Source of the DNA: Escherichia coli
Lineage (GTDB): Bacteria > Pseudomonadota > Gammaproteobacteria > Enterobacterales > Enterobacteriaceae
Length of the DNA: 64,000 nt
Assembly: GCF_003018255.1 (NCBI RefSeq)
Contig: NZ_CP027440.1
Direction: 5' to 3' (one strand)
Of the stretch, positions 19,306 to 47,650 are shown piece by piece. Position 1 is the first letter of the stretch, and every line of letters starts with the position of its first letter. The notes under the pieces are model-generated. The model saw nothing but the letters and a program-made list of their open reading frames with translations. It was not told the DNA's origin and did no database searches. The translations under genes and the position numbers were made by a program.

Positions 19306-21888
19306 TTAGCCAACGACCAGATTGAGGAGTTTACCGGGTACGTAAATCACTTTACGCACGGTAACGCCATCAAGATATTTTGCTACCAGATGTTCCTGGC
19401 CAGCACGTTCGCGAACCTGTTCTTCCGTTGCGTCCACCGGAACGGTGATTTTTGCACGGACTTTACCGTTAACCTGCACCACGACCAGCGTGGAGTCTTC
19501 CACCATCGCTTTTTCGTCAGCAACCGGCCACGGCGCGTTGTCGATATCGCCTTCGCCTTTCAGTTCCTGCCACAGCGTGAAGCAGATGTGCGGGGTGAAC
19601 GGGTTAAGCATACGGACAACGGCCAGCAGTGCTTCCTGCATCAGGGCGCGGTCCTGCTCGCCATCGGTCGGTGCTTTCGCCAGTTTGTTCATCAGCTCCA
19701 TAATCGCCGCAATTGCGGTGTTGAAGGTCTGACGACGGCCGATATCATCGGTCACTTTAGCGATCGTTTTATGCACATCGCGACGCAGCGCTTTCTGATC
19801 TTCAGTCAGCGCATCAACGTTCAGTGCCGCAACATCACCTTTCGCTGTGTGCTCGTAAACCAGTTTCCAGACACGTTTCAGGAAGCGGTTAGCCCCTTCC
19901 ACGCCGGATTCCTGCCATTCGAGAGTCATATCAGCCGGAGAAGCAAACATCATAAACAGACGAACGGTGTCCGCGCCGTAACGTTCAACCATCACCTGCG
20001 GGTCGATACCGTTGTTCTTCGACTTGGACATTTTGCTCATGCCGGTATAAACCAGTTCATGGCCTGCCGCATCTTTCGCTTTCACGATACGGCCTTTCTC
20101 GTCACGTTCAACGATAGCATCAACCGGGGAAACCCAGTTACGTTCGCCGTTTTCGCCAACATAGTAGAAGGCATCTGCCAGCACCATACCCTGACACAGC
20201 AACTGTTTTGCTGGTTCGTCAGAGTTCACCATGCCTGCATCACGCATCAGTTTGTGGAAGAAGCGGAAGTAGAGCAGGTGCATAATGGCGTGTTCGATAC
20301 CACCAATGTAGATATCCACCGGCAGCCAGTAGTTAGCCGCTTTGGAATCCAGCATACCTTCTTTGTACTCCGGGCAAGTGTAGCGCGCATAGTACCAGGA
20401 GGACTCCATAAAGGTGTCGAAAGTGTCGGTTTCACGCAGCGCTGGCATACCGTTAACGGTAGTTTTTGCCCACTCCGGATCTGCTTTAATCGGGCTGGTA
20501 ATGCCGTCCATCACCACATCTTCCGGCAGGATCACCGGCAGCTGGTCGTCCGGGGTCGGCATTACGGTACCGTCTTCCAGCGTCACCATCGGAATCGGCG
20601 CGCCCCAGTAACGCTGACGAGAAACACCCCAGTCGCGCAGGCGGTAGTTCACTTTACGCTCGCCAACGCCCATCGCAGTCAGTTTATCGGCGATGGCGTT
20701 GAAGGCCGCTTCATGGTCAAGACCGTTGAACTCGCCAGAGTTGAACAGCACGCCTTTTTCAGTCAGGGCTTGCTGAGAAAGATCTGGCTCAGAGCCGTCA
20801 GCTGCCAGGATAACCGGTTTGATGTTCAGGCCGTATTTAGAGGCAAACTCGTAGTCGCGCTGGTCGTGACCCGGAACCGCCATAACTGCGCCCGTGCCGT
20901 ATTCCATCAATACGAAGTTTGCTGCCCAAACGGGAATTTCTTCGCCCGTTAATGGGTGAACCGCTTTAAAGCCAGTATCGACGCCTTTTTTCTCCATCGT
21001 CGCCATTTCAGCTTCGGCAACTTTGGTGTTACGGCATTCGTCAATAAAGGCGGCCAGTTCAGGATTATTTTCCGCCGCTTTCTGTGCCAGCGGATGACCC
21101 GCAGCCACCGCCAGGTAGGTACAACCCATAAAGGTGTCCGGGCGGGTAGTGTAAACGGTCAGCGTGTTGTCATAGTCGTTAACGTTGAAGGTGATTTCCA
21201 CGCCTTCGGAACGACCGATCCAGTTACGCTGCATGGTTTTAACGGTGTCTGGCCAGTGATCCAGTTTATCCAGATCGTTGAGCAGCTCGTCAGCGTAAGC
21301 GGTGATTTTGATAAACCATTGCGGGATCTCTTTACGCTCAACTTTGGTATCGCAGCGCCAGCAGCAGCCGTCGATAACTTGTTCGTTCGCCAGTACGGTC
21401 TGGTCGTTCGGGCACCAGTTGACTGCAGAAGTCTTCTTATATACCAGGCCTTTTTTATACAGCTCGGTGAAGAATTTCTGTTCCCAACGGTAGTATTCCG
21501 GCGTACAGGTTGCCAGCTCGCGGCTCCAGTCATAACCAAAGCCCAGCATTTTGAGCTGGTTTTTCATGTACGCGATGTTGTCGTACGTCCACGGTGCCGG
21601 TGCGGTGTTGTTTTTCACCGCCGCGCCTTCCGCAGGCAGACCAAACGCGTCCCAGCCGATCGGCTGCAGGACGTTTTTGCCCAGCATACGCTGGTAGCGG
21701 GCGATCACGTCACCGATGGTGTAGTTACGTACGTGGCCCATGTGTAGTCGACCAGAAGGATAGGGAAGCATAGACAGGCAGTAATACTTCTCTTTGCTCT
21801 CGTCTTCGGTTACTTCAAATGTGCGCTTCTCATCCCAATGAAGCTGTACTTTGGATTCTATCTCTTCCGGGCGGTATTGCTCTTGCAT
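19306..21888 (-). CDS. leuS: leucyl-tRNA synthetase LeuS (860 aa)
   Basis: Track ORF is N-extended (907 aa); known start [11 protein letters not shown] at 21888; HMGH and KMSKS motifs present. Confidence 0.95.
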
Positions 21889-22122
21889 GGCAGCCAGTGG
21901 TCCTGTTTTCAATACGGCTACAAATGTAGCGTTGAGGTGGTTTTTCAGATCCGCATAGCATAGCCCAAACGTCCGCGTCAAAACAGCCTTTCGCGCACTC
22001 GACGTTGAAATGATGCCCGGATTATTCATACATTAATTTACAGAGTTTGTGGGCGTATTAGCAAAGCAAGGAACAAAGAACGTCTATTATTATAGTCAGT
22101 TAACGACCCGGGAGATGAAACG

Positions 22123-22605
22123 ATGAACAAGGTTGCTCAATATTACCGTGAACTGGTCGCGTCACTGAGCGAACGCCTGCGCAATGGCGAACGTGATATC
22201 GACGCACTGGTGGAACAGGCGCGCGAGCGCGTAATAAAAACAGGGGAGTTAACGCGAACCGAGGTCGATGAGCTGACGCGAGCTGTCAGACGTGACCTGG
22301 AAGAGTTCGCCATGAGCTATGAAGAGAGCCTGAAAGAAGAATCTGACAGCGTCTTTATGCGGGTGATTAAAGAAAGCTTGTGGCAGGAGCTGGCAGACAT
22401 CACCGATAAAACGCAGCTTGAATGGCGCGAAGTTTTCCAGGACCTCAATCATCACGGGGTTTATCACAGCGGAGAAGTGGTAGGGCTGGGAAATCTGGTC
22501 TGCGAGAAATGTCACTTCCATCTCCCGATCTATACACCGGAAGTGCTGACGCTATGCCCGAAATGTGGTCATGATCAGTTCCAGAGACGTCCGTTCGAGC
22601 CGTAA
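22123..22605 (+). CDS. ybeL: DUF1451 protein YbeL (160 aa)
   Basis: ORF track; C-terminal paired CxxC motifs. Confidence 0.9.
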   Translation: MNKVAQYYRELVASLSERLRNGERDIDALVEQARERVIKTGELTRTEVDELTRAVRRDLEEFAMSYEESLKEESDSVFMRVIKESLWQELADITDKTQLEWREVFQDLNHHGVYHSGEVVGLGNLVCEKCHFHLPIYTPEVLTLCPKCGHDQFQRRPFEP

Positions 22606-22619
22606 TGAAATGAGTGGTG

Positions 22620-22642
22620 CCGGATGGCGTGATGTCATCCGG
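22620..22642. repeat. REP-like hairpin between convergent ybeL and rihA
   Basis: ccggatg (22620-22626) / catccgg (22636-22642) with 9-nt loop. Confidence 0.55.
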
Positions 22643-22649
22643 TGAGTGA

Positions 22650-23585
22650 TTAAGCGTAAAATTTCAGACGATCAGCCAGTAAATCAACAAAGCCCTGACG
22701 ATCAACATCGACCATTACGGTGGCATTCGGTTTATTGCCAGTCAGATAATAATAATCAACAACCGTCATACCCTGGGTATATTTCCCTTGTGTTTCCACG
22801 CCAACCCAGCGCTCAACAGTGGTAAACAACTCCGGTTTCAACAGCCAGGCGATGGTGCATGGGTCATGCAGTGGTGCGCCGACAAAGCCCCATTTTTCGT
22901 CTTTATGATATTCGAGGAAGAAATCCAGCAGTTCGGCAACAATGGTTGAAACAGGGTTGCCAATCGCGCGGAAACGCTCAGTGTCTTCAACGTGGATTTG
23001 TGCTTTGTGAGTAACATCCAGACCGGCCATCACCACCGGAATTCCTGACTGGAAGACAATTTCTGCCGCTTCCGGGTCAACGTAAATATTAAATTCAGCC
23101 GCAGGCGTCCAGTTACCAAGCCCCATTGCGCCGCCCATAATCACGATACGGGCAATTTTGCTATGCAGTTCCGGGTGGCTATTGAGCAGCAAGGCAACGT
23201 TAGTTTGCGGTCCGGTTGAAACAATGGTGATAGGTTCCTCACTTTCACACAGCGTTTTCGCCATCAGCTCCACCGCCGTACAGTTTTGCGGTGCGAACGT
23301 CGGTTCCGGTAATGCCGGGCCGTCGAGACCGCTTTCGCCGTGCACATTGTCCGCAATAATCAAATTACGCATTAACGGTTTTACCGCGCCGCCTGCTACC
23401 GGAATATCGGTGCGATTAAGCAAGGTCAGCATACGCAGAACATTGCGTAAGGTTTTTTCTGGTGTCTGGTTTCCGGCGGAAGACGTAATTGCTTTGACAT
23501 CAAGCTCTGGTGAGGCGAGGGCAAGAACTATTGCGATAGCGTCGTCATGACCTGGGTCGCAATCTAACAGAATTGGCAGTGCCAT
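22650..23585 (-). CDS. rihA: pyrimidine-specific ribonucleoside hydrolase RihA (311 aa)
   Basis: Track ORF is N-extended; known start [15 protein letters not shown] at 23585. Confidence 0.92.
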
Positions 23586-23702
23586 TGTTGCTCCTTGTTG
23601 TGTGCTTCTTTGCGACAAGGGTACCGCTAGGATGTAACAGATACGAGGAGCGAAACGATAAAGCGTGAGATGGCGCGCACTTGGGTATGCGCGCCAGAGT
23701 GA

Positions 23703-24428
23703 TTAATGCAGGATTTTCGCGAGGAAGTCTTTTGCGCGGTCCGATTTCGGATCATCGAAGAAAGCGTCTTTCGGCGAGTCTTCGACAATTTTACCCTCGT
23801 CCATAAAGATCACCCGATTCGCCACTTTACGGGCAAAGCCCATTTCGTGGGTCACCACCATCATGGTCATTCCTTCGTTCGCCAGTTCCACCATCACGTC
23901 CAGCACTTCGTTGATCATCTCCGGATCCAGCGCCGATGTCGGTTCGTCGAACAGCATGGCAATAGGATCCATACACAATGCGCGAGCGATCGCCACACGC
24001 TGCTGCTGACCGCCGGAAAGCTGCGCCGGAAACTTATTGGCATGTGCGGAAAGCCCGACGCGCTCCAGCAATTTCAATGCTTTTTCACGAGCCGGCGCTT
24101 TATCGCGTTTAAGCACTTTCACCTGCGCCAGGGTCAGGTTTTCGATAATCGACAGATGAGGGAACAGCTCGAAATGCTGGAATACCATCCCGACGCGGGA
24201 ACGCAGCTTTGCCAGATCGGTTTTCTTGTCGTTAACCACGATGCCATCGACGGTGATTTCACCTTGCTGCACCGGTTCGAGGCCGTTGACGGTTTTAATC
24301 AGCGTTGATTTGCCGGAACCAGACGGGCCGCAAACCACCACCACTTCGCCTTTTTTCACTTCGGTTGAGCAGTCGGTCAGCACCTGAAAGTGACCATACC
24401 ATTTTGAAACATTTTTCAGGGTAATCAT
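23703..24428 (-). CDS. gltL: glutamate/aspartate ABC transporter ATPase GltL (241 aa)
   Basis: ORF track; Walker [10 protein letters not shown]. Confidence 0.95.
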
Positions 24429-27374: not shown

Positions 27375-29252
27375 ATGTCTGCATCTTCGGTTAAGCCGTT
27401 AAATGTTCAATTACCCGCAATAACCCTTATCCTTTTTGCGCTCTGTGTTGGGATATTTTGTTACCTCGCACAATGGATGAGTTATGAAGAAGTCGATCAA
27501 TCCGCACTTATCCATCTCGGTGCTAACGTTGCTTCTCTCACGTTGTCGGGTGAATCCTGGCGCTTATTGAGCAGTGTCTTTCTGCACAGCAGTGTTTCTC
27601 ATTTGCTGATGAATATGTTTGCACTCCTGGTGGTGGGGGGAGCGGTGGAACGTATTCTGGGGAAATGGCGACTCCTGATTATCTTGTTATTCTCCGGCAT
27701 CTTTGGTGGGCTGATCAGCGCCTGTTATGCGTTACGCGAAAGTGAGCAGATAGTCATCAGCGTTGGGGCATCCGGGGCAATTATGGGAATAGCGGGCGCT
27801 GCGATAGCAACACAGCTTTCTTCAGGTGCGGGTACACACCATAAAAACCAGCGGCGAGTATTTTCTCTGTTGGGTATGGTGGCGCTGACACTGTTGTATG
27901 GTGCCCGGCAAGCAGGAATAGATAACGCTTGCCACATTGGCGGCCTGATTGCGGGGGGCGCGTTGGGTTGGCTGAGTGCGCGTTTAGTTGGGCAAAATCG
28001 GCTCGTTACGGAAGGCGGGATTATTGTTGCGGTCACTCTTCTTCTGACCGGGACTATCTGGTTTGTGCAGCAGCAGATTGATGAATCAGTTTTACAGGTC
28101 AGGCAAAGCCTGCGTGAAGCGTTTTATCCGCAGGAGATTGAACAAGAGCGACGACAAAAAAAGCAGCAGTTAGTGGAGGAGCGCAACGCCCTCAGGGAAA
28201 CATTATCCGCTCCGGTAAGTCGTGAGCAGGCCAGTGGTGATTTACTCGCTGAGATTGCCGATATCCATGATATGGCGATCAGTCGGGATGGTAATACGTT
28301 GTATGCCGCAATTGAAAACACCAACAGCATTGTTGTTTTCGACCTCGGACAAAAGAAAATCCTGCATACCTTTACAGCGCCCATAGCGAAAGAAAAGTCA
28401 GTCAAACATTGTGGTGGCTGTAAAGATCAGGGCGTCAGATCGCTGGCATTAAGCCTGGATGAAAAGTTGATTTATGCGACTTCATTTGAAGCGAATGCAG
28501 TATCGGTCATTAACGTGGCGACGGGGGAGATTATTCAGTCGATTACCACCGGCGCCCATCCTGACAGCCTTATCCTCTCGCGTGATGGCACAAAAGCCTG
28601 GGTGATGAATCGCACCAGTAATAGTGTGTCAGCCATTGATCTGGTGACTTATCAGCATGTGACGGATATCCCGCTGGAGAAATACGACGGGACGGGGACG
28701 AGCGGTAAACCAGGCGCCTGGGTTATGGCACTTTCCCCGGATGAAAAAACATTGTTGATACCCGGTATGGTCAGAGGCGACATTGTACGCATCAATACCA
28801 TCACGCATCAGAAAGAAGACTTTCCCACAGGTGATGCGCGTGGTATCGTTTCTGCGATGGGATTCCGACCAAAAAATGGCGAGATTATTTTTGCCGATAG
28901 CCAGGGGATTTCACGTATAAGCGTAGGGGATCAACAAGCCAGCATTATGACGCAATGGTGTAGCAGGAGCGTTTATTCCGTTGAGGGTATTAGCCCGGAC
29001 GGTCAATATTTAGCGTTGGTGTCATATGGCCTGCAAGGTTATGTCATCCTGCTCAATATTAATGCCGGGCAGATTATTGGCGTTTATCCTGCCAGCTACG
29101 TTAATCACCTTCGTTTTTCAGCGGATGGTAGAAAGATATTTGTTATGGCGAAGAACAGGTTAATCCAAATGGACAGGACGCGCTCGCTTGATCCGCAGGC
29201 AATTATTCGGCATCCCCAATATGGCGATGTGGCTTGTATCCCTGAACCGTAA
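27375..29252 (+). CDS. rhomboid-family intramembrane serine protease fused to a C-terminal beta-propeller-like repeat domain (625 aa); accessory gene
   Basis: ATG 27375; GlpG-like TM2 H71/H76/N80 then GGAVE; GASG with Ser133 (nt 27771-27773); CHIGG with His187 (nt 27933-27935); predicted 7th TM helix; C-terminal [L/I/F]S-x-DG-type repeats. Confidence 0.8.
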   Translation: MSASSVKPLNVQLPAITLILFALCVGIFCYLAQWMSYEEVDQSALIHLGANVASLTLSGESWRLLSSVFLHSSVSHLLMNMFALLVVGGAVERILGKWRLLIILLFSGIFGGLISACYALRESEQIVISVGASGAIMGIAGAAIATQLSSGAGTHHKNQRRVFSLLGMVALTLLYGARQAGIDNACHIGGLIAGGALGWLSARLVGQNRLVTEGGIIVAVTLLLTGTIWFVQQQIDESVLQVRQSLREAFYPQEIEQERRQKKQQLVEERNALRETLSAPVSREQASGDLLAEIADIHDMAISRDGNTLYAAIENTNSIVVFDLGQKKILHTFTAPIAKEKSVKHCGGCKDQGVRSLALSLDEKLIYATSFEANAVSVINVATGEIIQSITTGAHPDSLILSRDGTKAWVMNRTSNSVSAIDLVTYQHVTDIPLEKYDGTGTSGKPGAWVMALSPDEKTLLIPGMVRGDIVRINTITHQKEDFPTGDARGIVSAMGFRPKNGEIIFADSQGISRISVGDQQASIMTQWCSRSVYSVEGISPDGQYLALVSYGLQGYVILLNINAGQIIGVYPASYVNHLRFSADGRKIFVMAKNRLIQMDRTRSLDPQAIIRHPQYGDVACIPEP

Positions 29253-47604: not shown

Positions 47605-47619
47605 TTTTAAGTTCTACCA

Positions 47620-47650
47620 GGCCGGGTGAGGCATTTACGCCACATCCGGC
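47620..47650. repeat. REP element downstream of glnS
   Basis: Minus-strand gccggatgtggcgtaaatgcctcacccggcc closely matches the REP consensus. Confidence 0.7.

Follow-up and report, generated by a model that had tools for sequence, protein, structure and literature searches.

The junction examined here lies in a 64-kb stretch of Escherichia coli DNA (the window, by which we mean the whole of that stretch). Here the genes lptE, leuS, ybeL, rihA, gltL, gltK, gltJ and gltI follow one another in the order usual for E. coli, with leuS and rihA on the minus strand and ybeL on the plus strand. The conserved gene on the left, leuS (19306-21888, minus strand), was taken from the list of open reading frames (ORFs) and matches K-12 LeuS by tblastn at 100% identity over 19309-21888. 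It is followed by ybeL (22123-22605, plus strand), whose 160-aa product, a zinc-ribbon protein with DUF1451, is 100% identical to K-12 YbeL; the identical protein carries Pfam PF07295, and ybeL is present in the annotation of the matching RefSeq genomes. Facing it is rihA (22650-23585, minus strand), which encodes a pyrimidine-specific ribonucleoside hydrolase of 311 aa that is 98% identical to K-12 RihA, and which likewise appears in the annotation of matching genomes. The conserved gene on the right, gltL (23703-24428, minus strand), was placed by the ORF list and by tblastn.

The stop codon of ybeL (TAA, 22603-22605) and that of rihA (complement of 22650-22652) are separated by a spacer of exactly 44 bp (22606-22649), which reads TGAAATGAGTGGTGCCGGATGGCGTGATGTCATCCGGTGAGTGA. 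These ORF coordinates bear out an earlier reading made from the letters of the window (the sequence-only reading), which had placed the two convergent stops 44 bp apart. We read the spacer as the unoccupied, and probably ancestral, form of a site that in K-12 is occupied by the hscC island.

The spacer hairpin and its likeness to REP elements

Within the spacer is a hairpin with perfect 7-bp arms, CCGGATG at 22620-22626 and CATCCGG at 22636-22642. A pattern search placed these arms at 22620-22642, where the sequence-only reading had put the hairpin. The 64-kb window has a single occurrence of CCGGATG-N9-CATCCGG, against 0.01 expected by chance. When the plus strand is folded as RNA, the stem extends to 10 pairs, 22619-22628 with 22634-22643, around a loop at 22629-22633, giving a feature of 25 nt (22619-22643). 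The fold has an energy of -17.2 kcal/mol (z = -3.0), and none of 200 shuffled sequences did as well. The minus-strand fold is weaker, at -11.0 kcal/mol (z = -3.2). The distance from stop codon to hairpin is 13 nt on the ybeL side and 6 nt on the rihA side. A scan of 21900-23800 against Rfam (E <= 1) matched no family.

Across all sampled empty-site E. coli, the 44 bp are unchanged apart from one or two SNPs. Searching the complete E. coli genomes with the 44-mer, we found 573 that match at 43 of the 44 positions and none that match at all 44, with one matching place in each genome. Position 22643, at the base of the stem, is T in the window and C in all other sampled empty-site junctions. This private C-to-T change turns a G-C pair into G-U on the plus strand and removes the pair on the minus strand. 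The common allele, with C at the equivalent position, folds into an 11-pair stem of -19.6 kcal/mol; the T thus weakens the plus-strand stem by 2.4 kcal/mol (from -19.6 to -17.2) and the minus-strand stem by 3.8 kcal/mol (from -14.8 to -11.0). A second natural allele, with an additional C at 22618, reaches -21.5 kcal/mol. The T at 22643 could be a real SNP of this strain or a sequencing error.

REPs and BIMEs between convergent genes are a long-established feature of E. coli genomes, and the GTAG/CTAC tetranucleotide beside the palindrome is the feature recognized by the RAYT transposase in REP/RAYT systems. The E. coli REP consensus has been given as GCCGGATGCGGCGTGAACGCCTTATCCGGCCTAC and also as GCCGGATGCGGCGTGAACGCCTTATCCGGCCTACGA (PMC12306157). 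Local alignment of the spacer with the consensus scored 24, compared with 10.9 +/- 2.2 for shuffled spacers, of which 2 in 2000 reached 24. The alignment runs from the head through ATCCGG and stops before the CCTAC tail, leaving the tail unaligned and about five interior bases missing.

Like the REP/BIME elements of E. coli and its relatives, the hairpin is extragenic, lying wholly inside the 44-bp ybeL-rihA spacer at the 3' ends of genes, and it is an imperfect palindrome that folds into a stem-loop on both strands. Its head, GCCGGATGGCG, fits the classical consensus of PMC12306157, and its far arm is CATCCGG. It differs from those elements in being shortened, at 25 nt compared with about 35 nt, in having lost the GGCCTAC/GTAG tail, and in being a single-copy variant in each genome instead of one of many near-identical copies. 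Both GTAG and CTAC are missing from the 44-bp spacer, while the outgroup REPs at the same site have GGCCTAC; the 44-mer occurs once per genome in the 573 genomes; and the head octamer occurs four times in the 64 kb, no more than chance would give.

Because the hairpin has the position and structure of a REP, and has neither the tail nor the copy number, its sequence is best described as a decayed REP remnant and not as an active member of the family. Such decay would have shortened the interior and lost the GGCCTAC tail, but spared the head, GCCGGATGGCG, and the CATCCGG arm that is complementary to it. To call the hairpin REP-like, as had been done at the outset, is fair on a consensus score that 2 of 2000 shuffles matched, though the CTAC tail is missing. 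Apart from the spacer hairpin, the window has one extragenic occurrence of GCCGGATG: a degenerate REP-like sequence, GCCGGATGTGGCGTAAATGCCTCACCCGGCCTGGTAG, at 47614-47650 on the minus strand, immediately downstream of a terminator hairpin with a T-run.

A G+C-rich stem placed exactly between two convergent stop codons could instead be chiefly a bidirectional Rho-independent terminator for ybeL and rihA, with an incidental resemblance to a REP, and it is true that both end spacers of the island-bearing allele contain hairpins as well. We regard this as improbable. The stem is followed by no T-run on either strand, a promoter/terminator scan makes no terminator call at the hairpin, and on the rihA strand the stem reaches no more than -11 kcal/mol. 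The alignment to the REP consensus, though partial, scores well above shuffled spacers, moreover, and the orthologous spacers of outgroup genomes are canonical REPs. Since there is no U-tract, efficient intrinsic termination at the hairpin appears unlikely.

REP stem-loops are barriers to 3'-exonucleases. The hairpin would be included in both convergent transcripts near their 3' ends and would probably fold into a stem-loop there, one that would by analogy protect against 3'-exonucleases. A second role is suggested by the passage of PMC12306157 that cites Liang et al. 2015, according to which translation of an upstream gene is down-regulated when a REP stands less than 16 nt (within 15 nt) from its stop codon. 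At distances of 13 and 6 nt past their stops, both ybeL and rihA fall within this range, and the hairpin might possibly act as a translation attenuator, hindering ribosomes that reach the stop codon. Results obtained with canonical REPs may not transfer to a single-copy hairpin without the CTAC tail. The site does offer a natural test case for the 15-nt rule, with one hairpin near two convergent stops and T/C variants at 22618 and 22643.

The seven-gene island in K-12

In a K-12 derivative (L001), seven genes lie between ybeL and rihA: ybeQ, ybeR, djlB, ybeT, ybeU, djlC and hscC, covering 7,976 bp from stop to stop. This is the block that the sequence-only reading had named for K-12. Direct adjacency of ybeL and rihA in K-12, which would have told against that reading, was checked and is not what the genome has; the island is present. 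None of the seven island proteins matched the 64-kb window by tblastn.

The island consists of hscC, which encodes an Hsp70, and two paralogous Sel1 / DUF1266 / J-domain modules. Its G+C content is 42-49%, compared with 51-54% in the flanks. HscC cooperates with DjlC and presumably with DjlB, and their loss raises sensitivity to Cd2+ (PMC8215388); the same Hsp70 review describes HscC as sporadically distributed, which suggests horizontal transfer (PMC8215388). This HscC-DjlB-DjlC system of K-12 is exactly the block missing from the window. When the seven K-12 island proteins were scanned with PADLOC, none credibly matched a model of a defence system.

The K-12 island contains a well-formed REP of its own, GCCGGATGCAGCGTTTACGCCGCATCCGGC, between djlC and hscC (L001, 10212-10241; -29 to -31 kcal/mol). 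It lies 8 nt from the hscC stop and between convergent genes, the same layout as that of the ybeL-rihA hairpin. As a possible source of the window's hairpin we rejected this element (L001:10212-10241): its alignment scores 22, no better than the 24-28 of the outgroup spacers, and a derivation from it would be less parsimonious, since two separate deletions would be needed.

The empty and the occupied allele are homologous only as far as the two stop codons. Past the TAA of ybeL, K-12 continues with TAGTCTGATTTCGCACAG... and the window with TGAAATGAGTGG...; before the rihA stop, K-12 has ...AATGACGTGTG and the window ...CCGGTGAGTGA. The end spacers of the K-12 island measure 69 and 83 bp, and each has its own hairpin. 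Local alignment of the 44 bp with either of them scored 7, within the range of shuffles (mean 6.3, 95th percentile 8-9), and the two end spacers have direct repeats of at most 7 bp in common. The window junction holds no remnant of the island. Because homology ends at the stops and repeats between the end spacers do not exceed 7 bp, we conclude that the spacer was replaced and not split, and that the island ends carry no target-site duplications of the kind that the sequence-only reading had suggested looking for. By eye, there is a resemblance of 8-11 nt before the rihA stop between K-12 (GACGTGTGTTA) and Citrobacter (GGCGTGTATTA), too short to weigh.

The borders of the K-12 island have no integrase, tRNA or IS, and the occupied form consists of the seven cargo genes only. 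The island shares with classical integrase-type islands a composition that departs from its flanks and a pattern of presence and absence among strains, but unlike those islands, which leave an empty attB, it lacks an integrase, a tRNA/tmRNA target and flanking direct repeats. It also resembles the islets and integration hotspots of the E. coli pan-genome: it is present or absent at a fixed position between core genes, its cargo is lower in G+C, and other genera hold different cargo at the same site. From these it differs in that the ybeL-rihA site has no integrase, tRNA gene, att-type direct repeats or IS, and in that the spacer is replaced instead of interrupted. Because of that replacement, the mechanism of gain would not be classical site-specific recombination.

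We then counted states of the site in E. coli. Among 5,426 complete genomes, ybeL and rihA are contiguous in 964 (17.8%, about one in six), while hscC is present at a coverage of at least 80% in about 4,377 and the ybeQ-ybeR-djlB block, at the same coverage, in 3,713. Some 660 complete genomes thus keep hscC but not the whole ybeQ-ybeR-djlB module, which marks an eroded island. For example, in strain p11A (L003; 8901-9366) ybeQ is a pseudogene fragment and ybeR and djlB are deleted, while ybeT, ybeU, djlC and hscC are kept, and 5,169 bp remain; another genome (L092) has an eroded island like this one. The empty, partial and full states were all found again in independent NCBI and ENA assemblies. 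The proposal that the window has the empty-site configuration of a strain-variable island is upheld by these counts. That the island was instead lost from the window through mis-assembly is scarcely credible, since the identical junction recurs in 964 complete genomes and also in independent assemblies from NCBI and ENA.

The presence or absence of small accessory blocks between core genes is long established in E. coli genomes. The variation between ybeL and rihA is ordinary strain-to-strain variation of the pan-genome, already known in kind, and carries little weight beyond correct annotation; what is added here is a polarity (empty as the ancestral state, at the strength argued below), the frequencies of the three states and the finding of unrelated cargo in other genera. 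It does mean that the window strain and about 18% of complete E. coli genomes lack HscC/DjlB/DjlC, the third Hsp70 system, together with the Sel1 and DUF1266 partners of that system, a point to bear in mind when phenotypes of K-12, Cd2+ tolerance for instance, are carried over to other strains.

The site in relatives and the direction of change

We scanned species-representative genomes with YbeL, obtaining 80 loci in which LeuS, YbeL, RihA, GltL and the seven island proteins were placed by tblastn; this set leaves out E. albertii, E. fergusonii, E. marmotae, E. ruysiae and S. enterica subsp. enterica. In 33 of the 80 loci, rihA lies directly downstream of ybeL (within 250 bp), as in the window. 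In another 27, rihA is absent and gltL directly follows ybeL, 13 have other inserts downstream of ybeL, and four are truncated. The hscC block was found in three loci, all from Escherichia (sp. E1V33, E. whittamii and sp. MOD1-EC7003).

The direct spacers of Citrobacter and of Salmonella enterica subsp. arizonae hold a canonical REP or an inverted REP pair, whose head always faces ybeL; that of C. braakii, for example, contains GCCGGATGCGACGCGCTGCGTCTTATCCGGCCTAC. In a multiple alignment, the E. coli hairpin fits the outer arms of the outgroup REP pair, GCCGGATGGCG ... CATCCGGCG, after which come (A/T)GT(G)ATTA and the stop codon of rihA. Citrobacter sp. FP75 has a hairpin shortened in much the same way, GTGCCGGATGGTATCGCCATCCGGCA. 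Closer to the window, one locus deposited as 'Escherichia coli strain SCPM-O-B-8794' (L011; NZ_JAATUR010000029.1) has a 39-bp version of the same spacer. Over 4.5 kb of flanks its identity to the window is no more than 93.5-95.6%, a distance similar to that of the cryptic clades, and despite the deposit as E. coli this degree of divergence suggests that it probably belongs to a different Escherichia species or a cryptic clade.

A neighbour-joining tree of 17 sequences, computed from 4.5 kb of flanks, places this divergent locus outside all sampled E. coli. Genomes with the full K-12-type island form one local clade. The empty-site genomes fall into several lineages of its sister clade, and genomes with a partial island (L003, L092) are nested among them.

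On this evidence we consider it likely that the ybeL-rihA junction of the window is the unoccupied ancestral allele of a variable site, that the island is a gain of the Escherichia lineage, and that the hairpin is a decayed REP. The 39-bp version of the spacer in the divergent L011 argues that the empty allele predates the diversification of E. coli; together with it, the direct junctions of the outgroups and their REP spacers argue that the empty site is ancestral and the island an Escherichia-specific insertion. K-12 would then have the derived state and the window the ancestral one. By the same evidence, the outgroup spacers and that of L011, the empty site reads as ancestral and not as the REP-mediated deletion boundary that the sequence-only reading had raised, which is not supported.

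The history that we propose would begin with an ancestor of Escherichia, Citrobacter and Salmonella in which ybeL and rihA were held apart by a short spacer with a REP or an inverted REP pair (BIME). In an Escherichia lineage, the seven-gene block would have taken the place of this spacer, stop codon to stop codon. Both alleles are found in E. coli today; homologous recombination in the conserved flanks has presumably carried them between backgrounds, and the hscC block would since have been shuffled among lineages, eroding in some of them.

The converse history is that a K-12-type island was deleted secondarily, perhaps stepwise through a partial form, and that the deletion left or acquired a REP at the scar. 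Some observations fit it well. The island is found in three other Escherichia representatives (L009, L010, L012) and is therefore old in the genus, which means that the persistence of the empty allele in E. coli requires a long-lived polymorphism or re-import. The roughly 660 genomes that keep hscC and lack the full ybeQ-ybeR-djlB block can be seen as ongoing erosion. On the flank tree the partial-island genomes cluster with the empty-site genomes, which could be read as a progressive loss from full to partial to none, and the rihA of one partial-island strain is 99.6% identical to that of the window.

A deletion, however, has no means of rebuilding a spacer whose position, orientation and sequence agree with those of the REP spacers in Citrobacter and Salmonella, nor does it account for the 39-bp form of that spacer in a divergent Escherichia lineage (L011). 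No trace of the island is left at the junction, where the 44 bp are no closer to the K-12 end spacers than shuffled sequences are. All 964 junctions appear to be one allele, which excludes independent deletions, and a single deletion followed by insertion of a REP is less parsimonious than retention of the ancestral spacer. We therefore think secondary loss unlikely, and prefer the reading in which the window retains the ancestral allele. REP copies are alike everywhere, and the likeness to the outgroup spacers is by itself no proof of orthology.

One of the Escherichia islands is longer than that of K-12. In Escherichia sp. MOD1-EC7003 (L012, 10578-12916), two extra ORFs of 344 and 321 aa lie between ybeL and ybeQ; the first is 27-29% identical to DjlB and DjlC, giving a third J-domain-like module in that version of the island.

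Other cargo downstream of ybeL

Genomes of other genera have unrelated genes at this position. In Citrobacter sp. MGH106 (L020, 10552-16827), a chaperone-usher fimbrial operon (Usher, PapD and Fimbrial domains) lies downstream of ybeL. A two-partner secretion pair (TPS domain and ShlB/POTRA) lies downstream of ybeL in Leclercia sp. (L054, 10559-13917), and another such pair stands in the place of rihA in Klebsiella oxytoca (L075, 10838-14350). The gene rihA is itself variable at the ybeL junction: loci without it (L022, L027, L031, L042-L045 and others) come from Kosakonia, Siccibacter, Yokenella and some Citrobacter.

These cases would make the 3' junction of ybeL a recurrent insertion point across the Enterobacteriaceae. 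A broader reading joins them to the hairpin. The REP or BIME past the ybeL stop would be a recombination target that makes the site a family-wide hotspot, different cargoes would have replaced the repeat independently, and the remnant in the window would attenuate translation termination of ybeL and rihA, tuned by the T at 22643. We offer this joint reading as speculative and doubt that all of it holds. If it were true, the hotspot would have taken up the HscC block in Escherichia, fimbriae of the chaperone-usher type in Citrobacter, and genes for two-partner secretion in both Leclercia and Klebsiella.

The window has a second strain-variable insert 5 kb from the ybeL-rihA junction. Between gltI and lnt lies a gene for a rhomboid-family intramembrane protease of 625 aa (27375-29252, plus strand); K-12 has IS5 at this position instead, and the gene is also missing from one empty-site assembly (L091).
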